Shown in pieces: positions 5,414 to 37,787 of a stretch of 64,000 nucleotides of DNA. Numbering within the stretch: the first letter of the stretch is position 1; each line of letters starts with the position of its first letter. The translations under genes and the position numbers were made by a program. The stretch lies in IMG/VR virus record IMGVR_UViG_3300020122_000089, positions 32,001 to 96,000 of that record; one strand, given 5' to 3'. This DNA comes from a virus. Under the pieces are notes generated by a model. The model was not told where the DNA came from, made no database searches, and saw only the letters and a program-made list of their open reading frames with translations.

Positions 5414-5977
5414 TTAGGCGCATTGTCTCTTTGTACGTTTTATCAACCGTAGTTTTGCAGGTGTAGGCTTCCATTGCGGCGCTGGCGGCGGCTGTTTGTT
5501 CTCTTTTTTCTTCTTTTTTAATCTGTTCTGTTTTCTACTTTGCTTCAACGCCAGCCAGTACGCGGTCTCGCCTGATTCGTTTCTCGCAATTGTTTTATGA
5601 TATTCAACAACAGCTCGCGTTATCGCCGCTTCAAATATCCACGCTGAATAGTCAGGCTTGTCAATAATCTTTTCGATTGGATATGATTTTACGTTACTAT
5701 TTTGCAGCCGTACTACAGAGAATCCAAGCGATTTCAAAAACTCCGTTCGCCGCTTATCGTATACCACCGCATCAGGCGTTGAGTGCTGCTTGCCGTCTAT
5801 TTCAACGATTAGCATTTTCTCGGGTAGTACGAAGTCTGCTATATAGAATCCTATGACGTGCTGGCAATGGAAATTCAACCTCGCCATAGTAAGTCTTTTT
5901 GCAAAACGCCTTTCGTATTTAGTCTGCTCGTAGCGCATCTCTTTTGCGCGTGAGTGCAGTTCGTCTAATTGTAACAT
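5414..5977 (-). CDS. DUF559 / Vsr-like PD-(D/E)XK endonuclease-domain protein
   Basis: QHVIGFYIADF..LIVEIDGKQH..YDKRRTEFLKSLGFSVVR matches the DUF559 pattern. Confidence 0.85.
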   Translation of the reverse strand: MLQLDELHSRAKEMRYEQTKYERRFAKRLTMARLNFHCQHVIGFYIADFVLPEKMLIVEIDGKQHSTPDAVVYDKRRTEFLKSLGFSVVRLQNSNVKSYPIEKIIDKPDYSAWIFEAAITRAVVEYHKTIARNESGETAYWLALKQSRKQNRLKKKKKENKQPPPAPQWKPTPAKLRLIKRTKRQCA

Positions 5978-6172
5978 GGCGGGAATCTTCCGGAAGATTT
6001 CATTCCTTGATTTTTGCTAGTAAGCCCTATGTGCGAATCCTAGTAAAATGAAGGATTGCGATTTTCGAGATTTCAATCGCCTATCTGTGCTTTACGTATT
6101 CATTACCATGTGGTATTTCATGGTATTAAGAATCGTATTTACTCCGGCGGCCGCGTGTTTCTACAGGTCCCT

Positions 6173-6201
6173 ATTGTAGCATGGTTTCCTGTTAAAGTCA
6201 A
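6173..6201 (-). promoter_or_regulatory. Sigma70-type promoter upstream of the DUF559 gene
   Basis: TTGACT-17 nt-TACAAT with TG extension on the minus strand. Confidence 0.55.
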
Positions 6202-6240
6202 GGTATTTTTTCTTACCGTTCTTCCGGAAGAAAATCCTCA

Positions 6241-7623
6241 CTACCGCCAATCTATATCATACGTACCGTCAGCTTTGCGGGCTTTTATCACTCCGGTTTT
6301 ACCGTCTTTAGATTTGACAGCACGCCCTATGTTTTGGTCGTGTAAATTTGCAGAACCTGACGCCTTCTGTCTTTGCGCTAACTTAGCCGCTCGCATCGTT
6401 GCTTTTTCTTGTTCTATTGCGGCTTCGTTTGCCTGCTGCTGTTCGGGAGGGGCAAATACCGATACTTTATGCTTTGCTCTCGCATCTTTGTCGATTTGCT
6501 TTTCTTCTGAATCAGTGAGGCGTTGCTCTGAAACGGCACGGTTGGCTGAGGCAATGCCTTCGCGACTCTTAATGCCAGCCTCAGAACGTGCGTTGCGACC
6601 TGCTTCTTTTGTCGCCTCTGAGGAGGTTACGCCCGTCTGTTTTACCTCACCAGTCTGGAGGTTTAGAACACCAACACCAAAGTTCTTATCCACGACCTGC
6701 TTAATCGCGCCTGGGAGGAATTTAGGATCAATGTTTTCGGCGTTAGGGATTCCAGCCTTCTCAGCCATCGCTATGAGCCCATCTGGATCACCGTTTAACG
6801 CGCCACTATTATACGCCTTGATGAAGTTTTCAAAAGGAACATTAGCGTACTTCTCACGAATACCTTGAAGTCGGGCCGAGGTAATGTCTTTATAGGTTTG
6901 CGCACGGTCTTGAGCGACACCTAAACGCCCAAATGCTAGAGCATTCATGTAATCGCGATTCAAAGCGGTAGGGCCTCGAAGGCCAGTCATTGGGTCGATC
7001 CCCGTAAGGCCTTCTAGCTCTTGAGCACGTTTTAGCTGTGCTTGTCTTTGCTGTTCTTCTATCTGAGATGCTTGGGCTAAAGCGGGAAGATGTGACCGGT
7101 AGAAAGCTCGGTTAACGGTGGAAGGATCTACGCCACCATAAATAGCACCACCGAGCCCACCCATGAGAAGGCCCTTTCCAATTCCAGCAAGATGAGCTTT
7201 TAACCCATGTACGTCAGGGGGTGTATAAGCGCTCGCCTGCGCAAAGCGTTGTTCGGCGGGGCCGGGTTGATATAAAGACCTAAGATTAGCGGCCTGCTTC
7301 ATGTATTCTTGCGGGATTGGTTCACCCTGCCCGCCTACAGTACCACCTTGCGCCATTGCGGCAAGAGCGTTCATTAACCCCATGCGGTTTGCCATTTGAG
7401 GATCGGGGCCTGTAATACCTGGGATTTGTTGCGCACCACCACCGCCGTTCATGTCATACCCTGATTGTTGCTGAGGCGCCGCCACTGAGGCGCCCATGCC
7501 GGGAGGTGGGCCTCCGTACTGAGAAGGATCTGAAAATAATGTCACCGGTGGTAGTTGCGCGCCGGCGAGACGGGCAGCACCGCCCCAAGGGTCGGCAGGA
7601 TCAGCGGTAGGATCGTATGGCAT
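6241..7623 (-). CDS. Putative internal virion/ejection protein
   Basis: 460 aa, G/Q/A-rich low-complexity helical protein with a GLLMGGLGG segment, between tail genes and the giant protein. Confidence 0.5.
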   Translation of the reverse strand: MPYDPTADPADPWGGAARLAGAQLPPVTLFSDPSQYGGPPPGMGASVAAPQQQSGYDMNGGGGAQQIPGITGPDPQMANRMGLMNALAAMAQGGTVGGQGEPIPQEYMKQAANLRSLYQPGPAEQRFAQASAYTPPDVHGLKAHLAGIGKGLLMGGLGGAIYGGVDPSTVNRAFYRSHLPALAQASQIEEQQRQAQLKRAQELEGLTGIDPMTGLRGPTALNRDYMNALAFGRLGVAQDRAQTYKDITSARLQGIREKYANVPFENFIKAYNSGALNGDPDGLIAMAEKAGIPNAENIDPKFLPGAIKQVVDKNFGVGVLNLQTGEVKQTGVTSSEATKEAGRNARSEAGIKSREGIASANRAVSEQRLTDSEEKQIDKDARAKHKVSVFAPPEQQQANEAAIEQEKATMRAAKLAQRQKASGSANLHDQNIGRAVKSKDGKTGVIKARKADGTYDIDWR

Positions 7624-7652
7624 TGCTTTATCCTATGAATCTTCCGGAAGAA

Positions 7653-8159
7653 TTAAGACGCCTTTGATAGATACGCTTCGAGATTGAAGATTTGTTTACA
7701 ATTTGAGCAGGCGATTAAATGCGCCTGCTTGTGAAATATCTTTGCTGACGTTACACCGCCATCTGTATCGTGATCTACGAAACCGCTGAGTACAAGCACC
7801 ATCCTAGCGGGCGATTGAAATGTCTCTTTACAAAACATACATTCATATTCATGTTCACGCATTGCATAAGCGCCCTCTTTTGCCGCGATTGCGTCTTTTA
7901 ACGACGCCGCATGTCCATCAGGGTCATTAGTATGATGCGCTGCTGCGTTTATAAGTTCAAGCTGATAATGCGCTGAGGCGATTGCTTTAGCCCTGCTATC
8001 GGTGAATACATAAGGATGATTTAATGATTGCTGTTGACGTTCTTCTGCTAATGCGGATTCAAATTCACGAAGAAGCTCAACGCCATCCTCTTCTTCTTTA
8101 TCATTTAGAATAGAGAGGATTTTGAATCTAAGATCGTTTGCGCGTTGCGTTATATCCAT
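7653..8159 (-). CDS. Hypothetical protein with C-terminal Zn ribbon
   Basis: 168 aa; CMFC and CSNC pairs; ATG directly follows the upstream TAA. Confidence 0.6.
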   Translation of the reverse strand: MDITQRANDLRFKILSILNDKEEEDGVELLREFESALAEERQQQSLNHPYVFTDSRAKAIASAHYQLELINAAAHHTNDPDGHAASLKDAIAAKEGAYAMREHEYECMFCKETFQSPARMVLVLSGFVDHDTDGGVTSAKIFHKQAHLIACSNCKQIFNLEAYLSKAS

Positions 8160-10757
8160 TTAGGTTCCAATGAATCCGCCTACGGCAGGAACGTCGCCAC
8201 CACCGCCACTGCCAAATTGCTGCTGCCCACCAATCCCACCGGTAGGGACTACGCTGAAAGGCTCTGATGCAACAGGATTTCCCGCTGTAATGCCTAAAGA
8301 ATTAGTGTTGCGCTCTTTTAGGTTCTTCCTTACAAACTGTACGGGGGTTTTACCCGTAACCTGCATCACCCTTGCGATTTGTAAGTATGGGCCTGCCGTG
8401 TTTATAGTAGTCGAAGTGCGGAAACAAAGATAAGTGTCCTTCGCCGTGAAGGCATCCGCTCTAATCATTGCCGTAGCTTCTACATAGAGAGGGGTGGTGG
8501 TGAATAGTGTACTTCCAAGCGAGATAATATCAGACTGCTGGACGGCAGCATGGACGGTTTGTACGGTCGCCGTTCCGCTAAGGTTTGGCGTTACTTCAAA
8601 CGACTGATCGTTTGTAATTGAAAGGACGGTGCGGACGTCATTGTTGATCGCCACCTCAGCGCCTACCCTTAGTTCGGAGGTTGCAAGACCTAATCCGTTG
8701 TGTGAATTAACGGTATGGAGGTTCGCGTTTATATCCCAAGTGTCTGTCAAATCAAAAAGACTCGCCAGTAATAGGTCGAGATTAGCGGTTAAGCTGCTAT
8801 TAGAGGATAAGAAGAAGGTCCAACTCTTGAAATCGCCTCTTACGATGTTGGTGAATAAATCCTGTATAATGTACGCCTTATTTGCGGCGGAATCATTTTG
8901 ACGCCAAAACGCTAAGTGGTTCGCTTGATCCCACCGGCCACGAGTGCTACCGGTTCCAATTCCAACAAATCCGCCCGTGGATATTCGCCACTGCTGCCAA
9001 TTGCCCATGGTGGTAGGGGTAGTGCCATCGTCGTTTGTAAAATCGCCATTCCATAGATCGTTGTCAAATGCCGTGTTAGGCGAATAATCAATCTGTCCAC
9101 TCAGGGCTGGTATCGCCACAGAGGCCGCGCTTGTAGTTTGACCAACTGAGTTAGTCAGTCGAAATTGGCATATAAGCTGGACGTCGCCAAACAGTTTCCT
9201 TAATCGTTTTAGCGAAATTGGAATGCTTACTATGGTACCACGATCCGTCACATCGTAAAATACTACACCTGCGGCGCTAGTTGGGTTATCCAACTAGTTT
9301 AGATTCAAGCTAGTAGTCGCTGCAAAATCCGAGATGTTTAACTCTACCAATTTAACAGAAGCGATATTCGTAGCGTTCGCCATTGGCAGCTTGCAATGTA
9401 ATTTGCCTCTTACAAAGAAAAACTTGGGCGCATCTGGAAGAACCGGCGCCGTTAAGTCCGCCGGTATATCGTCTGGTACGCCTGTCGAAAAAGAGGCTCG
9501 GGTAAATGTAAGCTGTAATCCACCTATCGCGGTAATTACCACCTGTAGATCGTAAGTCTGAGATGGCTTGAACCTTGCGCCATCTGCGATAACTATAGAT
9601 TGGGCACCTGCGACTACTAATTCATTATGTTTCAAGGTGGTTTTGTCTATAAAAAGAACATAAGCACCTACACTTTCAGAAGATAGCTTCCGGAAGACTT
9701 TGACATTTTTAGGCGCCACTGGCGTTGCAGGTTGCGTAAAATTTAAGGTTAACTTAGCCGCCTTTGAAGTGTAAGGAGGCGTTGTACTATCTATTGAAAG
9801 ACTTGGGCTAGTCAGTAGTGTAGGGTCAACTGAAAACCCTCCGGCTGAAAAAGTGCATCCACCGCCCGTACTTACGGATTTGTCATTTCCAATCCAGGTG
9901 ATGTTTGCGGTCCAGTTTATTTGATCGCCTGGAATGTATCCTGTCTGTGTGATGTCTACAAATCCTCGATTAACCTTAGTTGGGGAGTTTGGATCTACCT
10001 GTGTTAGCTCAACGCCATTCAAAACGTGTGTAATATGCTTTGCAACGAAACTACCTGATTTAGCCACTACCACGACGGTATCAGAATTTGAAGCACCCCA
10101 CGTTTGGGCATTACCAGATGCGTCGAGTGGTGCCCAAACCCTGTAAGTAACAATTGCTTTATAGTCTAGGTTTGGGTCTAATCCGTTTGCTGCAATTGCG
10201 CCTCCGACTATGCCACCCGTTATCCCTTGTATAAGTCCGCAGTTAGGATCCGATGGAACGCCAAACAGTGACCCTAACGAAAACGTAATGAGATAATCAG
10301 ATTCGTTTCTTGGTGAATCAGGAAAATCAATCGCAGGATTCTGTGTTCTCGCTCCATTTGAGTCTACAGAAACGAGCTTGATACAGCCATATTTCTTCCC
10401 TGCGTATAGCGGGATTGGAAAATCAAAGTCAAATACTGGCGGCGTCGGGGATGGTATTTCAATGTCGGCCGAGTTTATTCGCCATGTCACTGTGACGGGA
10501 CTACCGGTACCTGTATACTCTTCTAATACCACCTTGAGCTTATTAGTATTGAACGGAACTGCACATCTGAGAGTTACTATTACCCTGCCGTTTTTGCCAG
10601 GCTTTGTAGCCACAGGCCACGGGCCTATAGGCGTTAGGTCTGTAGGATTGCCCGCACCAGTAGTTCCTGTGCTTGAAGATTGCGCTGCAATTTGCTGGCG
10701 CAGGTCCTCAAGCATGTTCTGCGTCGTTGGATAATCTATGTCGCCGCCTATACCCAT
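8160..10757 (-). CDS. Tail/receptor-binding structural protein split by one in-frame TAG (ORFs 9294-10757 and 8160-9293)
   Basis: Both ORFs are beta-rich and G/S/T-rich, in the same frame, joined as CTA AAC TAG TTG GAT; no obvious RBS for the TTG start. Confidence 0.6.
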
Positions 10758-31946: not shown

Positions 31947-34900
31947 TTACGCGAATGCTACGGCCGGTCCTGGCAGGTTTGTAATGTCGGAATTACTAAT
32001 GAGCCAGTGGCAGCCGAAGCGGGTAGCCCCGCCTTGTGTTAGCTTATGGTTCGATTTTCCATAAGAGCAGACTATCGCATCGCCTATTTTAGGCGCCTCT
32101 TCGTTTAGTCGTTCACGCTGATTATCTTGCGCCCTGTTTGGGTTCTCACCATTCAAGTCTATTAGAAGAGGTTTTCGCATATCATTATCTCTAACAATAT
32201 GGCCCCATCGGTGGAGGTCGTACTTACAGCCAAGGAACCCTATCCACTGATCGTAATAAGTCCCCCCGCTGGTGTACTGCCTGACCTGAAGCGTATCACG
32301 CGCATACGCCCCGAACTTCATTCATCTGTAATCTCCGGTTTTCACCGGAGTGTCGGACTATATTATCGGCTGTAAACATTACAGTCGCCGGGCGCTCTAG
32401 CTGGTAAATTAAAGGGACTAAACCCTTCCAGTAGTCTCTACACCTTCCGAGGGTGTACCCTCGACTTGGCTCGGTATTACCATACTATTTATTTCGTTTA
32501 GGCTTCACCGAATTCACCCGGTTAATTTCCCCTAGCATCACTGCTAGGTGAGCCAATTGTTAGTTTAGCTCGTACACATTGATTTCCGCCGGATTCACAC
32601 CGTACGTCCTGTCCGGGTCAATCGCGACATGGGTTTCCCAGGTAATGCCTTCTCCAAATTTCACGTCAGTGAACGTTTTGTTACTTCCCTTTCGGGAGGG
32701 TATATCATTTCTGTATACCTCTGTATGTTTCCATACAGCCCAGACTATCTCATATTCTCACTTGACAATGGCGCCTGTTTCATGTTATAATGTTTGGCAT
32801 TATGCCACAAAAATTCGGACGCTTAACTGTTCTGGGTAGGTCTTACAACAATCCATCTAAATTTCAATTCGCCAGATGGACCTGTTTATGCGATTGCGGA
32901 AACATCGTAGAGCCACTTGCAATTCATGTGCGATCTGGAAACACCCAATCCTGCGGATGCTTGCAGCGCGAAGCTGCGAGCAGACAGGGTAAGGCGAATG
33001 CTACGCATGGACTGTCGGGTACGCCTGAGGCCTACATCTACTATGCAATGCTTCAAAGGTGTTTTAACCCGGAGCATCCTAGCTATCAAAACTATGGCGG
33101 CCGTGGTATTACGGTATGTGAAAGATGGATTGGTGCTGAAGGATTGGCCAACTTTCTCGCCGATCTCGGGCCGCGCCCTAGTTCTGATTTGACACTCGAA
33201 CGCAAGAATAACGATGGAAACTACGATCCCGATAATTGTAAATGGGATACACGCGATAATCAGAATCGCAATTATCGTCGCAACCGATTTCTTACCTTTA
33301 ATGAAAAGACGCAGTGTATCGCCGATTGGGCCAGCGAAACAGGTCTCTCTCATGATACAATTAGCTATCGGTTGGCTCATGGATGGTCCGTCGAAAAGAC
33401 TCTAACTACACCTACCAAAAACAGTCTCAAGTAAGAACCGGGGCGTTATTAGGCTCTTATTGGATTGACTCCTCAAGCCTTAGTCGTTGCACCTGCCCGC
33501 CTACTTTTACGTCATTCGGCGAGATTGGCTCAGGATTTCCATGTCTCAAATTAACGAGATTTAGGATTCCCTGAATTAACCCCGTTTGCTTACAGATGTT
33601 ACCACCTGTAGGGACTTCTTTACAGAAATCCATTCTTAGCGATCCACCGCCCCCGTCAAAACGTTGCAAATTATATCCGTTCGTTGCTGTTATCCGGCCT
33701 ACGCCGAAACTGGTCATTTCTGCCAGTTTCTTGCGGTTATTTTTCCCGCAAGACCAGAACATTGCATCATCCTTATAGGATGTCGCCTCATTTGTTCGTT
33801 CACGCTGATTTCTTCCGGAAGAAACCTTGCGCCTCGTTGGCATTTCAGCCTCCGGGTCGATTACAGGCGATTTGCATCCCCGTATCACTACAGGACGGTC
33901 CAGGATTCCAGACATGTAGGCAGCTTTTTGGGTCGGGGAGGAAAGGATCAAAGTGTTACCTGGGTTGTCGGTCCGATACCTGAGGCTAAAGTGCACCTCT
34001 ACGAGCAATGCTACCTGCAATCTCTGTTGAGATGCATTTAGAACAATGCTCTTTAGGTATGGACGGTTGGATCTGAGTTGACCTTGGATTTCCCCCTTAT
34101 GTGTTAGCTTACGATTTTTCTTTTCGTAAGAACAGACTATCGCATCATCCTGACGTGCATACAGGACGCCTTCTCGTTTAGTCGTTCACGGTAGATTCTT
34201 CCGGAAGAATTATCCTTCCGCCCTATCAGCATTGCAGCTTTTAAGTCGATCAGAGAAGGTTTTCTATTCATCGTCACCGATGAATGCACCCGAGATTGAG
34301 TGTCATTGTTTACAAGATCGGTCACAATCTGTTACCTCTTCCTTGTGGAAGCGGGCGAGTCGTTTCCGCTCACCTCTGCATGTTACCATGCAGTTCAGAC
34401 TATATCTTTCTGAGTTTTCTTGATAAGCATTCTTAGCGCCTCCGTATCCGGAAAACCCTTCTTGATTAGGTAATGAATCGCCGCCGCTTTTACGTTCAAT
34501 GTTTCAGCCCAAGCGGTGATACATTGCGTAACGTCATCGAGTGTTATCATGTGATTACGCCGCGTATTACGCATCTGCTCTTTCTTGGTTGCCCACTTCA
34601 CATTCCCTGGTTCGTAATTGCCGTTGTTGTCAATGCGCTCAAGAGAATGTTCTGGTGATGGCCTTTCACCTACATCGGCGATCCAGTTTTCAAAGCCGTG
34701 CTCGCCAATCCACCTATCGGCAACCTTTATGCCACGTCCACCGTAATTTGGATAAGAAATCCCCGATTTTCTACGGCAGCGTGTAAGCATGGCGCAGTAC
34801 AATTCATACTCCACCGTATGCGAACGTCCATGCGTTCGGTTACCTGCCGCGGCGGCTTCCCGCTGTTTCTGTCCTTTATTGCGCTCTATTAATTCCTCTG

Positions 34901-37652
34901 TGCGTAAACAGCCGCAAGATTTAGTGACGCGATCATAGAGGCGCCTGGGCCGTGCAAGGATTTCGTTACCGCAATCACACTTACAAACATATCGAGTACG
35001 TACGTACCGTCCGATGGCAACCTGAACCCTCCGTATGACTGTCAGGCGGCCTACCCTGGGCGGAATTGGAAGCGCTGGATACATGCTTACTCAAACCTCA
35101 GACCGGGCATTGGCACGGGGTTATTAGTTTAGCCTCTTCACCCGTTAGTCGTTGAACGTTCCTGCCTACTGCTAAGCTATTCGGCAGGCTTCGCTGCTGA
35201 TTGTCCTTTGAAAGGAGTTCCCAGCAATTAACCCGGTTTATCCTGGGCTGTTGATTCAACCCATGTGGAGCCTTTAGCGCCGACCCCTCATAAGTGAGGT
35301 AATCATTCGCCGTAGTCCCCGTTGGCACTGTGTCGCACGTGATGACGCTCGTTGAGCGGTTGTTACCACCTGGGTCAACAACCACTCCGGTTGTAGGAGC
35401 GCCACGCGCTACGTTTGTAGTACCGTTTACGAAGTGAATACGTGCTCCGTCTTTTACTTTGAAGGAGCCGAACGTGCCGCCGTCTGCTACGGTTACGGCG
35501 CAGGTTACTGTACCGTTAGCACCTGTAGTAGCACTCTTGACTACCGCTATTGCACCGTTCTTAGAACCTGCAATTTGGAAGTCCAAAGTCTTCTTGGAGG
35601 CTTCGGTTTGGAGGAGGTAGAGGTCGCTGATTTTGTCAATCAGTGCATCGCCTCCGATGTTGTCGAACACGTCCCCCGAAATAAGGAACGCGGTTGCGTA
35701 TCTTGCTGGAAAAATCCGCATGTCATTACGGTCCTCCAACGGTTCAATTTCCGTTGGCCCGGGCCATCGCATCGTCTTGAACAGACGCCTCTCCGTTTGG
35801 TCTCTCACGCTACTAGATTCTTCCGGAAGAATTAGTTTGCGCCCCGTTCCCGTTTCAGGGTCCGAGTCTATTAGGGGTGGTTTACATAATCCACGTCGCC
35901 GTAGATTGAGTCCAATGTTTGAACTGCGGATTATCGGCAACTGGCATTGCTCCGCCTTCAGTGAAGTCGGTCTTGTTACTAGCTCTTTTTGTAAAGAGCC
36001 GGACGGGTCATTTCTGCCCATCTCTGCATTTTTCAATGCAGCCCGGACTATATCATAAACTTTACCTTGATTTTCCTCAAGAAATGTGCTATAATGACGC
36101 ACATGTATAAAGCGAAAAGCCTTGTCGGCCAAAGATTCGGACGTCTCATCGTTGTTGCGTTCTCGCATAGAAACGACAAGAAGAGGTCGAACCATTGGCT
36201 CTGTCAATGTGATTGTGGTGGGACGGCTACGCCATCCTCTTACGCCTTGAATTCTGGTCATACCCAATCCTGCGGATGTTATCACGCAGATTGCGCACGT
36301 GCTCAAGGTCATAAAAGTCGCAAACATGGAATGTCTAGGACGGCTGAATACTACGCTTGGAATTCCATGAAGGGTCGCGTTCTTTTTTCTCATCATCCTG
36401 GATATCCGGATTATGGCGGTCGAGGTATCACTATCTGCGACCGCTGGCTTGATCCGGAGCATGGGTTTGAGAATTTTTTGGAGGATATGGGGCCACGGCC
36501 TCATGATCAACTCTCTGTAGAACGCATGAATAACCACGGTAATTACGAGCCAGGAAATTGCAAGTGGGGAACGGATACTGAACAGGCTCGAAATAAGCGC
36601 AGTAATCATCCTCTGACTTTTAACAACAAAACCCAGCCTATGTCCGCCTGGGCGGAGGAAACTGGATTGCCATATCACATTATCAGCCATCGTATTCGTG
36701 CTGGCTGGAGTGTCGAACGGGCGCTGACTGAACCTATCAATCAATCGTATTCCCGTCGAAAAAGGTAAAGCCCTGGGGCGCTGTTTGGCGTTACTAAGAT
36801 TAGCTCTTTCGGCCATAGTCTCTGGACCTTCCTACCTACTTTTATGCTATTCGGTAGGCTTGGCTGCTGATTACCATATCTCGCGGTTGAGATTTAGGCT
36901 TCCAGCAATTCACCCCATTCATGTTAGATGTCACCATCTAACAGCCCATTGTGCATAGGAGTCGGATGCCGGCGGGCGGTCGTAGAAAGGAATTCTGTAA
37001 CCCCGTTGATTGACCTGTATGGCCTTCCCTTTATGGAAGCGGTTGTACAATTTTTGTTGCGTTCCTTAGAACGGATGGATATTTTCATTCCACCTCTTAC
37101 GGTTCAGATTTCCGCAAGATCGGACTGTTGCATAACCTAACAAATCAGGCCCCTCTTCGCTCAGTCTCTCACGGTAAAGATTTTTCTCTTTTTCCGCCTC
37201 GTTACCATGTTGCAGGTTTCGAGTCAATAAGAAGAGGTTTTCATCTATCGTTTTCACGGTAAATGCCCCGTATTTTGATGCCCAGGGTTTGGCTCTCTTC
37301 GAACTGTTTTTCAATCTCGGGATTGACAGCAGTCCTCACTACGGCTTCAAATTGGCTAAAAACAAGCTCCCGGTTTCTGGCGATTTTTCTTTTTCGCCAG
37401 CCCAGACTGTCGCATCACCCTTTTGGGCGCCTTCTCGCTCAGTCGTTTACGCCGCTCGGATTCATACCGCTCGTATAACGTTGGTCTCGTTAATTCGGAT
37501 TCAACAATCCGTCCTAACTGTTTCCAAAGTTTATCTGCCAATACTTCATCCTGCTTGCGCATTGTTCCCGTTTCAGGATTCAACTCAATCAGAGAAGGTT
37601 GTTTTCCAAAGGAGGCTGTATCGCTACAGGGCTGGCCGAGCTTTTCAGCCAT
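31947..37652 (-). CDS. Major capsid protein, 11 exons: 37652-37647, 37369-37284, 37048-36957, 35967-35922, 35728-35259, 34324-34299, 34095-33910, 33681-33628, 32673-32567, 32322-32215, 32031-31947 (421 aa)
   Basis: Exons total 1266 nt and read without a stop: MAELVFSQFEAVVRTAVNPEIEKQFEESQTLYNRF..GYRIPFYDRPPASDSYFTEGGAMP..KAPHGLTDLVNNDTGEIQG..SPTQKAAYMSNGYNLQRF..GFLGCKYDLGATRFGCHWLISN..AFA*. Lies downstream of scaffold and portal; RIP..EG and GL..LV motifs are HK97-fold-like. Confidence 0.85.
32032..32214 (-). mobile_element. Group I intron 10 (183 nt)
   Basis: P1 CCU/GGG; P3 CCUCUUC/GAAGAGG; AACGACUA / GAUAGUC; ends CACAAGG. Confidence 0.87.
32323..32566 (-). mobile_element. Group I intron 9 (IA-like, 244 nt, no ORF)
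   Basis: P1 GAGCU|AA..UUGGCUC; P3 CCGGGUG/CGCCCGG; AGAGACUA / AUAUAGUCC; ends CAGAUG. Confidence 0.9.
32674..33627 (-). mobile_element. Group I intron 8 (IA-like, 954 nt) with antisense HNH ORF in P8
   Basis: P1 GGAU|UUCU..AGAAGUCC; AAUUCAGGGAA..AAUCCUGAG; CAACGACUA / GAUAGUCU; ends AACAAAACG. Confidence 0.9.
32802..33434 (+). CDS. Intron-encoded HNH-type homing endonuclease (antisense to intron 8)
   Basis: CLCDCG..SCGC..YGGRGI..LERKNNDGNYDPDNCKW..QNRN; promoter TTGACA-18-TATAAT (32762-32791). Confidence 0.85.
   Translation: MPQKFGRLTVLGRSYNNPSKFQFARWTCLCDCGNIVEPLAIHVRSGNTQSCGCLQREAASRQGKANATHGLSGTPEAYIYYAMLQRCFNPEHPSYQNYGGRGITVCERWIGAEGLANFLADLGPRPSSDLTLERKNNDGNYDPDNCKWDTRDNQNRNYRRNRFLTFNEKTQCIADWASETGLSHDTISYRLAHGWSVEKTLTTPTKNSLK
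33682..33909 (-). mobile_element. Group I intron 7 (228 nt)
   Basis: P1 GUCU/GGAC; P3 UCGCCU/AGGCGA; compensated P7 GAACA/UGUUC; ends AGCAACG. Confidence 0.85.
34096..34298 (-). mobile_element. Group I intron 6 (203 nt)
   Basis: P1 CACU/GGUG; P3 CCUUCUC/GAGAAGG; AACGACUA / GAUAGUC; ends CAUAAG. Confidence 0.87.
34325..35258 (-). mobile_element. Group I intron 5 (IA-like, 934 nt) with sense HNH ORF in P8
   Basis: P1 UGGGU|UG..CAGCCCA; AAUUGCUGGGAA..AAUCAGCAG; CAACGACUA / AUAUAGUCU; ends AACAGAUUG. Confidence 0.9.
34395..35084 (-). CDS. Intron-encoded HNH-type homing endonuclease (sense, intron 5)
   Basis: CKCDCG..SCGC..YGGRGI..SLERIDNNGNYEPGNVKW..QMRN; the C-terminal codons overlap the P7 3' strand. 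Confidence 0.85.
   Translation of the reverse strand: MYPALPIPPRVGRLTVIRRVQVAIGRYVRTRYVCKCDCGNEILARPRRLYDRVTKSCGCLRTEELIERNKGQKQREAAAAGNRTHGRSHTVEYELYCAMLTRCRRKSGISYPNYGGRGIKVADRWIGEHGFENWIADVGERPSPEHSLERIDNNGNYEPGNVKWATKKEQMRNTRRNHMITLDDVTQCITAWAETLNVKAAAIHYLIKKGFPDTEALRMLIKKTQKDIV
35729..35921 (-). mobile_element. Group I intron 4 (193 nt, imperfect P3/P7)
   Basis: P1 AGUU|CAA..UUGGACU; P10 CAUUG/UAAUG; P7 GACCA/UGGCC with one mismatch; ends GACCG. Confidence 0.8.
35968..36956 (-). mobile_element. Group I intron 3 (IA-like, 989 nt) with antisense HNH ORF in P8
   Basis: AAUUGCUGGAA..AAUCAGCAG, CAGAGACUA / AUAUAGUCC, P3 GGGGUG/CGCCCC, extra helix between P7 and P3, ends AAGACCG. Confidence 0.9.
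36103..36768 (+). CDS. Intron-encoded HNH-type homing endonuclease (antisense to intron 3)
   Basis: CQCDCG..SCGC..HG..YGGRGI..DMGPRP..SVER..GNYEPGNCKW..QARN; promoter TTGATT-17-TATAAT (36067-36095), ATG 7 nt later. Confidence 0.85.
   Translation: MYKAKSLVGQRFGRLIVVAFSHRNDKKRSNHWLCQCDCGGTATPSSYALNSGHTQSCGCYHADCARAQGHKSRKHGMSRTAEYYAWNSMKGRVLFSHHPGYPDYGGRGITICDRWLDPEHGFENFLEDMGPRPHDQLSVERMNNHGNYEPGNCKWGTDTEQARNKRSNHPLTFNNKTQPMSAWAEETGLPYHIISHRIRAGWSVERALTEPINQSYSRRKR
37049..37283 (-). mobile_element. Group I intron 2 (235 nt; boundaries ambiguous by 1 nt)
   Basis: P1 CCCU/GGGG; P3 CCUCUUC/GAAGAGG; P7 GAGACUG/CAGUCC; end GCAACAAAAAUU(G). Confidence 0.82.
37370..37646 (-). mobile_element. Group I intron 1 (277 nt, no ORF), after codon 2
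   Basis: P1 UGGCU|GA..UCGGCCA with U-G; P10 AAGCUC/GAGCUU; P3 CCUUCUC/GAGAAGG; P7 GACUG/CAGUC; ends in G. Confidence 0.88.
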
Positions 37653-37787
37653 ACCGTAATCCCCCTTTCTTTCCTAATCCTTGCCTACGCTTTTCTTCCG
37701 GAAGAACCGGAATACTCGGCGCGTTACTCATGCTCTTGATTACGGTGACGATTCCGTGGTACGTCAAACATTTCTTTTTGTTTCCGC

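Follow-up and report, generated by a model that had tools for sequence, protein, structure and literature searches.

Copies of a phage's own gene-junction palindrome at the P6a tip of three predicted small group I introns in a major-head-protein gene

Introduction

In the mitochondrial and plastid DNA of Volvox carteri, short palindromic repeats are found in intergenic DNA as well as in those parts of group I introns that lie outside open reading frames (ORFs) (PMC2670323), and mitochondrial rRNA genes contain repetitive hairpin-forming elements in dispensable parts (PMC2800124). Among phages, Cluster O mycobacteriophages carry the 17-bp repeat TGTTCGGNNNCCGAACA in more than 30 copies per genome (PMC4351075). 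The P6 loop of the T4 td intron is the classical insertion site for an ORF (PMC2219692, PMC3073962), and it holds the I-TevI ORF together with a hairpin that sequesters the ribosome-binding site (PMC3073962). Here we describe a 64,000-nt stretch (the window), bases 32001-96000 of the 104,058-bp uncultured virus record IMGVR_UViG_3300020122_000089, which has direct terminal repeats. A 14-nt palindrome, TTCTTCCGGAAGAA, is dispersed over this genome, and three of its copies lie in introns 4, 6 and 7 (I4, I6 and I7) of a major-head-protein gene, each in the tip of P6.

Like the organelle repeats, the palindrome forms a genome-wide family of short hairpins that is also found in parts of structured RNAs, apparently without disturbing their function. 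The organelle repeats are seen as selfish filler, are heterogeneous and often stand in tandem, whereas the element described here is a single invariant 14-mer that is otherwise tied to gene starts and promoters; each of the three introns has one copy, at a defined helix tip, and the centre of the motif changes with the lineage. With T4 td the locus shares the use of a phage intron P6/P6a loop as an accepted landing site, regulatory hairpin included; it differs in having no ORF and in that its hairpin copies a genome-wide motif, while the td element is intron-specific (PMC3073962). The Cluster O repeat is likewise an invariant, dyad-symmetric phage repeat, dispersed and mostly at gene boundaries, but the Cluster O paper reports no repeat inside introns or ribozymes (PMC4351075), and here three copies lie in predicted catalytic RNAs. 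Dispersed palindromes in organelle group I introns and rRNA, and invariant dyad repeats in phages, are therefore already known. What is new is the combination: an invariant, start-associated motif, present once per intron at a defined helix tip in several ribozymes, with intron copies that track the lineage variants.

Two further cases bear comparison. Vioque reportedly described in 1997 short tandemly repeated repetitive (STRR) sequences inside helix P12 of cyanobacterial RNase P RNA, which would again be a dispersed repeat in a dispensable ribozyme helix tip, albeit in another ribozyme, of another repeat type and in a cellular genome. Adams et al. are reported to have engineered a U1A-binding loop into a peripheral loop of the Azoarcus group I intron for a crystal construct in 2004 (cited in PMC2219692). 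There too a hairpin, in that case a protein-binding one, would be carried by a small group I intron on one of its outer loops, with folding kept, but that graft is artificial, whereas the present one is natural and made of the phage's own motif.

Position of the palindrome in introns 4, 6 and 7

The first-pass annotation of this DNA had placed palindrome copies in the P6 tip of introns 4, 6 and 7. All three are present and exact, each inside a small group I intron; the starts given there (35819, 34197 and 33811) are those of the 12-nt core, and the 14-mer begins one base earlier. The features are listed below in window coordinates. Bit scores are those of R1, a covariance model built solely from 42 clean introns of other phages, which avoids circularity, and the P6/P6a spans were counted by hand from the sequence ruler.

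31947..37652, minus strand: major-head-protein gene, split into 11 exons by 10 group I introns (tblastn with uninterrupted homologues)
35729..35921, minus strand: intron 4 (193 nt), small-family group I intron (R1 76.8 bits, E 2.8e-15)
35807..35842, minus strand: intron 4 P6/P6a, GCGC-AA-ACUAA-[motif]-UCUAGUA-GCGU (ruler count and R1 alignment)
35818..35831, no strand assigned: palindrome copy of intron 4 (exact match)
34096..34298, minus strand: intron 6 (203 nt), small-family group I intron (R1 88.2 bits)
34188..34221, minus strand: intron 6 P6/P6a, GCGG-AA-GGAUAA-[motif]-UCUA-CCGU (ruler count and R1 alignment)
34196..34209, no strand assigned: palindrome copy of intron 6 (exact match)
33682..33909, minus strand: intron 7 (228 nt), small-family group I intron (R1 68.7 bits)
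33802..33832, minus strand: intron 7 P6/P6a, GCGC-AA-GGU-[motif]-AUCA-GCGU, 8-bp hairpin with CCGG loop (ruler count and R1 alignment)
33810..33823, no strand assigned: palindrome copy of intron 7 (exact match)

In the RNA the order of elements is the P4 3' strand, the P6 5' strand (GCGC or GCGG), the AA of J6/6a, a flank, the motif, a second flank, the P6 3' strand (GCGU or CCGU), J6/7 and P7. The R1 alignment treats the palindrome as an insertion in the P6a loop in all three introns, and the motif-bearing loops are 23-28 nt long. The AA of J6/6a is invariant across the intron family, and the motif lies beyond it. Contact between J6/6a and P3 is a recurrent tertiary interaction of group I introns (PMC2219692), and everything past the AA is peripheral.

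Unconstrained folds predict that the motif pairs with itself as a hairpin in intron 4 (pair probabilities 0.73-1.0) and in intron 7 (0.55-0.75). In the minimum-free-energy fold of intron 6, CGGAAGGA, made up of the P6 5' strand and J6/6a, pairs with the motif 5' arm UUCUUCCG and outcompetes both the motif self-hairpin and the native P6/P6a. It is possible that this predicted competing pairing is a misfolding trap, a switch, or a microhomology that aided insertion. The family-conserved GCGGAAG of the P6 5' strand and J6/6a resembles the motif arm CCGGAAGA.

Introns 4, 6 and 7 as predicted group I introns

By their sequences, introns 4, 6 and 7 are predicted group I introns, ORF-less members of a widespread small phage family. 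Three requirements fixed the ends of the small introns: colinearity with homologues, a 5' splice site preceded by U, and a G as the last base; all three motif-bearing introns end in G. In intron 4 the 5' exon ends ...CAGUU and the intron ends ...GACCG, giving a junction Q-F-N-D as in the homologues; the junction of intron 6 (...GACACU followed by GGGGAA) gives D-T-G-E and that of intron 7 (...AUGUCU followed by AACGGA) gives M-S-N-G. Removal of the three introns restores an open frame colinear with the metagenome homologues P0012 and P0013 and with the uninterrupted genes of the loci L012 and L014. By eye, the exon ends ...AGUU, ...CACU and ...GUCU can pair with intron GACU, GGUG and GGAC, with U.G at the junction.

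Support for the secondary structure comes from A3, a MAFFT alignment of the 42 outside introns only. In A3, 97.9% of the cells are paired as against 38-44% in slid controls, and compensatory changes occur at 21 of 28 pairs. Every one of the six P6/P6a pairs is 100% paired and shows compensatory changes. P3 (helix 1) and P7 (helix 5) cross, are 98% and 100% paired, and include the covarying pairs 94-147 and 100-142; P7 of intron 7 itself has two compensatory changes (GAACA/UGUUC).

P3, P4, P5, P6, P6a, P7 and P8 were annotated for R1, and P7 was left out of the model because it crosses P3. The model finds I10 (96.8 bits), I2 (91.4), I6 (88.2), I4 (76.8) and I7 (68.7), so that the three motif-bearing introns match over the full model at 69-88 bits. 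It finds intron 1 in two pieces because of an insert of about 100 nt. The six small introns of the head gene align with each other. In the whole genome R1 matches within the head gene only, and beyond it the model also matches four introns in the locus L013 and one in L016. The Rfam model RF00028, which is one model and not a definition of group I introns, detects introns 3, 5, 8 and 9 only and misses the six small ones (I1, I2, I4, I6, I7 and I10; 183-277 nt) even at E<=1, a miss that applies to these six members, as the outside loci were not searched with RF00028.

Intron 4 (35729-35921) has two non-standard P3 pairs and an A.C mismatch in P7 (GACCA/UGGCC), and its R1 score is the second-lowest of the five whole matches, that of intron 7 being the lowest. 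Intron 4 may be a weakened ribozyme.

A widespread intron family without the motif

A search pattern made of P7, J7/3 and J8/7-P7' was run on IMG/VR and matched at least 118 loci (L017-L134), often with two or three introns within 1-3 kb. The family has a core of about 117 nt, a P6 of the form GCGG-AA-GNRA hairpin, and J8/7 GAUGCGAUAGUC. Of 121 aligned members, 71 have AAGC-GNRA-GCA or AAGCC-GNRA-GGCA (11 or 13 nt) between the two strands of P6; a second class of 20-22 nt has AAGCAGG-stem-GNRA-stem-CCGGGCA. Over the ORF-less members this stretch ranges from 10 to 45 nt, and on the aligned sequences P6a is the most length-variable part of the predicted ribozyme. We infer that many of the outside members have coding-looking sequence, instead of a P3-P6 core, upstream of P7.

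None of 107 family members outside this group of phages carries the palindrome in P6, and TTCTTYYRRAAGAA is absent from the 975 kb of their loci. An IMG/VR scan for the motif together with the P6 3' strand returned L013 only, apart from L143 and L144, which are coding false positives. The idea that the motif is a conserved part of the intron family was rejected on the same count of 107. Two proposals of the first-pass annotation gain from these numbers. The site is structurally tolerant, as judged from the 10-45 nt range and from the position of the motif past the invariant AA. Introns of motif-less genomes with the same P6 sequence, which would have spoken against an addition after the introns arrived, were looked for among the 107 without a single find; since the motif is absent from the outside members, its presence in P6 is lineage-specific and, on this evidence, secondary.

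The palindrome across the genome

The window holds 29 copies of the palindrome at up to one mismatch where 0.04 are expected, and chance occurrence was rejected on that expectation. The whole genome has 30 exact copies and 55 at up to one mismatch. An ATG-initiated ORF of at least 50 aa begins 0-25 nt downstream of 28 of the 55, mostly at 1-6 nt, while 200 sets of random positions gave 11 such starts on expectation and 19 at most. In the start-associated copies the GGAAGAA arm falls where a ribosome-binding site would be expected. Six copies were seen by eye 5-20 nt upstream of a TTGACA hexamer, in the reading direction of the hexamer, which hints at a possible promoter role at the DNA level besides the association with start codons. 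The head gene itself has an ordinary gene-junction copy, and that of L013 likewise has a palindrome copy upstream of its ATG.

Genome 1359, 45393, 57252, 70850, 96006 and 103245 (window -30641, 13393, 25252, 38850, 64006 and 71245): six TTGACA-linked copies
37693..37706, no strand assigned: palindrome copy of the ordinary gene-junction type, 42 nt upstream of the head-gene ATG (sequence match)

The three intron copies are atypical of this gene-junction family by position: on both strands, no ATG-ORF of at least 50 aa starts within 25 nt of any of them. They match the exact 14 nt, including the lineage-specific CG centre, and no target duplication was seen around them by eye. Elsewhere in the genome there are motif-free gaps of 12.4 and 7.7 kb. 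A strict spacing rule was rejected because of gaps up to 12.4 kb, and the selection for motif density that the first-pass annotation had suggested is likewise unsupported in view of these gaps. The genome encodes a NusG-NGN protein at genome 102717-102971 (44.9 bits).

Related phages and their variants of the motif

L013 is a 29-kb IMG/VR contig (G002) whose head gene is split by about eight introns at codon positions that differ from ours. Its intron sites (5873-10568) include one 5 nt upstream of our intron 4 site. On this comparison, intron positions turn over fast between close relatives with 85-90% identical exons. In the 104-kb genome L012 (G001) the head gene is uninterrupted, and TTCTTTTAAAAGAA is present in 25 copies.

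Each lineage has its own version of the palindrome. In our genome the centre is CG only, with none of 55 copies CA or TG; L013 has 18 copies of TTCTTC-CA/TG-GAAGAA and none with CG; and L012 has TTTTAAAA only, so that all lineage centres are pyrimidine-purine. Read on the plus strand, L013 has CA and TG centres in a ratio of 11:7, and plus-strand genes are preceded by copies in either orientation. A change from CG to CA/TG is the expected product of a C-to-T change at the central CpG. Mixed centre states are absent from the 18 copies of L013 and from the 55 of our genome, which argues that the centre is probably fixed by selection in each lineage; the intron copies obey it.

In L013 the CA variant sits in the P6a loop of the small introns c and d, on the AAGCAGG...CCGUGCA backbone of class 2, which carries a GNRA tip in outside members. 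The motif also occurs in the last 3' hairpin ('P9.2') of introns h and e, the copy in e being degenerate (TTTTTCCAGAAGAA) and outside the 18. For three further relatives, P0002, P0003 and P0006, the evidence consists of read-through translations, not DNA. Orthologues of intron 6 are found at the same codon in P0003 and P0006. The P0006 protein reads SSGR at the P6 position of this orthologue, in the same codon and frame, in line with the long co-residence of motif and introns that had been proposed at first pass. P0003 has a different 78-nt insert there, without the motif, so the comparison of orthologous introns in related phages, which the first-pass annotation had named as a check, yields a motif peptide in one case and a motif-free insert in the other. 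The orthologous d intron reads FFQK (CAG) in L013 and FFRK (CGG) in P0006, and the peptides LPEE and SSGR appear in the P9.2 of a further intron in P0002 and P0003.

How often the motif entered

Over 105 conserved columns, core identity among I4, I6 and I7 amounts to 63-67%, a level also reached between them and introns of unrelated phages. The statement that these introns have different core sequences therefore stands as far as identity goes, with the addition that all three belong to one family. Despite a core divergence of about 35%, the motif is identical at 14 of 14 positions in the three. Around it, I4 and I6 share 21 nt (TAGA, motif, TTA), and a match of 23 nt links I6 to the intergenic copy at genome position 5677; both flank matches rank in the top 4 of 870 copy pairs. 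I7 has no such flank match, and the motif sits in its GAU/AUC loop in another register. The motif-less paralogue I10 serves as comparator:

32032..32214, minus strand: intron 10 (183 nt), without motif; P6 GCGC-AAGAUAAUCA-GCGU at 32132-32115 (R1 96.8 bits)

Its P6 loop is 10 nt long. Compared with the I10 loop GAUAAUC, I6 is GAUAA^UC plus the 14-mer and I7 is GGU^AUC plus the 14-mer.

A tree of the 105 core columns is poorly resolved. It places I4, I7, I10, L013 a, c and d, and L016 in one unresolved clade (support 83), with I6 beside that clade and I2 and I1 elsewhere; I2 groups with introns of other phages. From flanks, registers and backbones we read that the motif probably entered this genome no fewer than twice: I4 and I6 would have an entry in common or have passed the copy from one to the other, and I7 looks like a separate event. 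We further read at least one probable entry on the class-2 backbone (the L013/P0006 lineage) and at least one in P9.2. The earlier proposal of independent addition in all three introns may thus hold for I7; for I4 and I6 it is weakened by the shared 21 nt, and monophyly of the three is not rejected (p=0.19).

Origin and maintenance of the intron copies

In the small family the default is a 4-bp P6, the invariant AA of J6/6a and a short, usually GNRA-capped P6a hairpin. In this lineage the phage's own 14-nt gene-junction palindrome would have replaced the tip of P6a. As RNA, it is predicted to lengthen P6a with a 5-bp stem, a CCGG loop and one to three flanking pairs, leaving the catalytic core intact. 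Entry would be secondary, most likely through copying of a patch of about 21-23 nt from other genomic copies, and would have happened at least twice here (I7 apart from I4/I6); the phage group would have seen several further entries, both in P6a on a different backbone and in P9.2. We favour this repeated secondary capture of the genome's own palindrome at the P6a tip, neutral for catalysis and kept uniform by a common force, with a probability of roughly 0.6. As the intron copies are letter-perfect and follow the lineage variant, the force that keeps the approximately 50 other copies uniform may well act on them too; it might be a putative phage factor that recognises the motif at the DNA or the RNA level, or ongoing conversion between copies. 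The best explanation for all small-intron copies being in P6a might be that no other loop can take a 14-nt hairpin at no cost. We think that the motif has no role in catalysis and is a tolerated, possibly useful extra site in the transcription unit.

Several points weigh against repeated capture. Approximately unbiased (AU) tests do not reject a single clade, neither for I4+I6+I7 (p=0.19) nor for the five P6 carriers (p=0.20), and in the core tree I4, I7, I10 and L013 a, c and d fall into one unresolved clade. All five P6 copies known from DNA (I4, I6, I7, L013 c and d) are in the same element, which would have a chance of about 1 in 600 if they were independent and free to enter any loop; therefore either the copies have a common ancestor or P6a is a preferred site. 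To our knowledge, there is no mechanism that inserts a patch of 14-23 nt without flanking homology. Moreover, LPEE and SSGR each fit more than one centre variant, and for P0002, P0003 and P0006 there are translations only. Another possible history is a single ancestral gain in P6a, after which the intron would have multiplied in the head gene by transposition or duplication and I10, L013 a and L016 would have lost the motif, so that the three copies were inherited. It would account for the common structural site of every motif-bearing small intron, for the unresolved clade and the AU results, for the 21 nt common to I4 and I6, and for the retention of the motif in the I6 and d orthologues of P0006. 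We nevertheless regard it as unlikely, because the loop backbones differ (AAGCAGG...CCGUGCA in L013 c and d, GAU/AUC in I6, I7 and I10), I7 differs in register and has no flank in common with the others, the tree leaves I6 outside the clade with I2 and I1 elsewhere, the cores have diverged by about 35% around a perfect motif, and the P9.2 copies in a different intron type would be left unexplained.

The association with gene starts (28 of 55 copies against 11 expected) might also suggest that the hairpin is what was left as a P6a cap when a homing-endonuclease ORF, whose expression needed the start motif, was deleted from the P6 loop, probably a frequent place for such genes in this family. 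The T4 td intron offers a precedent with its I-TevI ORF and hairpin in the P6 loop (PMC3073962), many outside members seem to have coding-looking sequence upstream of P7, and long non-motif P6 inserts are present in I1 and in the I6 orthologue of P0003. In this phage group, however, intron ORFs lie in P8 or P9 and not in P6, none is preceded by the motif, and no ORF remnant is found beside the motif in the short loops of I4, I6 and I7, so that we see only a slim chance for such an origin. It is improbable, too, that the motif is a functional gate, be it that a phage protein binds the P6a/P9.2 hairpin and controls folding or splicing, a link already considered at first pass, or that the motif as DNA reloads a NusG/RfaH-like factor and so lets RNA polymerase get through the 4.4 kb of untranslated intron RNA. 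The perfect, lineage-true intron copies and the encoded NusG-NGN protein would fit a gate, as would the predicted pairing of the motif 5' arm with the P6 5' strand in I6 (CGGAAGGA/UUCUUCCG), which would disrupt P6 if the hairpin were not stabilised. Yet the motif is missing from half of the six small introns and from every one of the four large ones, which must splice too, the I6 orthologue of P0003 does without it, the hairpins of I4 and I7 are predicted to form unaided, and motif-free stretches reach 12.4 kb elsewhere. A related and bolder idea, to which we attach a small chance, is that the P6a and P9.2 hairpins are docking sites for a putative phage reader shared with the approximately 50 gene-junction copies, so that maturation of the head mRNA would be programmed by the phage. 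Such a reader might stabilise P6 against the competing fold predicted for I6, or reload a NusG/RfaH-like factor on the DNA. If this were true, we would be dealing with a natural protein-tagged ribozyme and with introns of a phage structural gene put to regulatory use.

Under repeated capture, which we prefer, an intron-crowded head gene is tied to a lineage-specific iterated palindrome that would be under the same evolutionary force within ribozymes and at gene junctions. The intron copies can serve as a natural control for the function of the palindrome, as they have no adjacent gene start, would be transcribed and have a defined RNA fold; a reader of RNA hairpins and a reader of duplex DNA make differing predictions there. 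The analysis also uncovers a widespread family of small group I introns in environmental phages (the at least 118 IMG/VR loci, often with several introns per gene) and identifies P6a, together with P9.2, as the naturally tolerant grafting sites of this family.

The host gene and its other introns

The major-head-protein gene runs on the minus strand from 37652 to 31947 (ATG at about 37651, stop at 31947), downstream of a 499-aa ORF. Its exons were placed by tblastn with uninterrupted metagenome homologues of 415-420 aa (P0005, P0009, P0012 and P0013), and P0013 matches phrog_14242 (PHROG 14242), 'major head protein', at E 5.5e-6. The transcription unit measures 5.7 kb and is 78% intron, and the untranslated intron RNA amounts to 4.4 kb. 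A megablast of the head region and a tblastn of the head protein against GenBank phages gave no match, nor did a profile search of the head protein against PDB, and the metagenome scan yielded just one intron-less relative and one 1.2-kb fragment.

Three large introns carry HNH-type ORFs (phrog_374). Those of introns 3 (36067-36768, plus strand) and 8 (32790-33434, plus strand) run antisense to the head gene and to the intron that contains them; the ORF in intron 5 (34395-35084) has the sense orientation. The two remaining small introns are both without the motif:

37048..37282, minus strand: intron 2, without motif, P6a AAAGA-GAAAAA-UCUUU (R1 91.4 bits)
37370..37646, minus strand: intron 1, without motif, with a P6 insert of about 100 nt (R1 in two pieces, 25.6 and 23.7 bits; small-intron alignment)

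In intron 2 (37282-37283, 37048) the frame T-L-Y-N and a terminal G require a 5' splice site after G (ACCCUG|GGC) and not after U; the U.G pair of its predicted P1 lies one base earlier, which would shift the frame. The motif-free insert of intron 1 (37420-37530) occupies the same P6a position as the motif does in introns 4, 6 and 7. With this insert and the 78-nt insert in the I6 orthologue of P0003, P6a is a general dumping ground in this phage lineage.

Small and large introns of the phage group share a 3' module made of a hairpin with loop CAGAAAUGA or CGGAAACGA, a variable hairpin, and (G)AGUAACA...G. It was seen in the window at 35968-36023, 34323-34375, 33682-33730 and 32674-32720, and in L013 at 6040-6109, 7640-7688 and 9330-9391. 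The variable hairpin of this module is where the motif is located in L013, P0002 and P0003. In our genome the same hairpin reads CUUCC-ACAA-GGAAG in intron 5 and CUCUUU-ACAA-AAAGAG in intron 3, and both resemble the motif arms.

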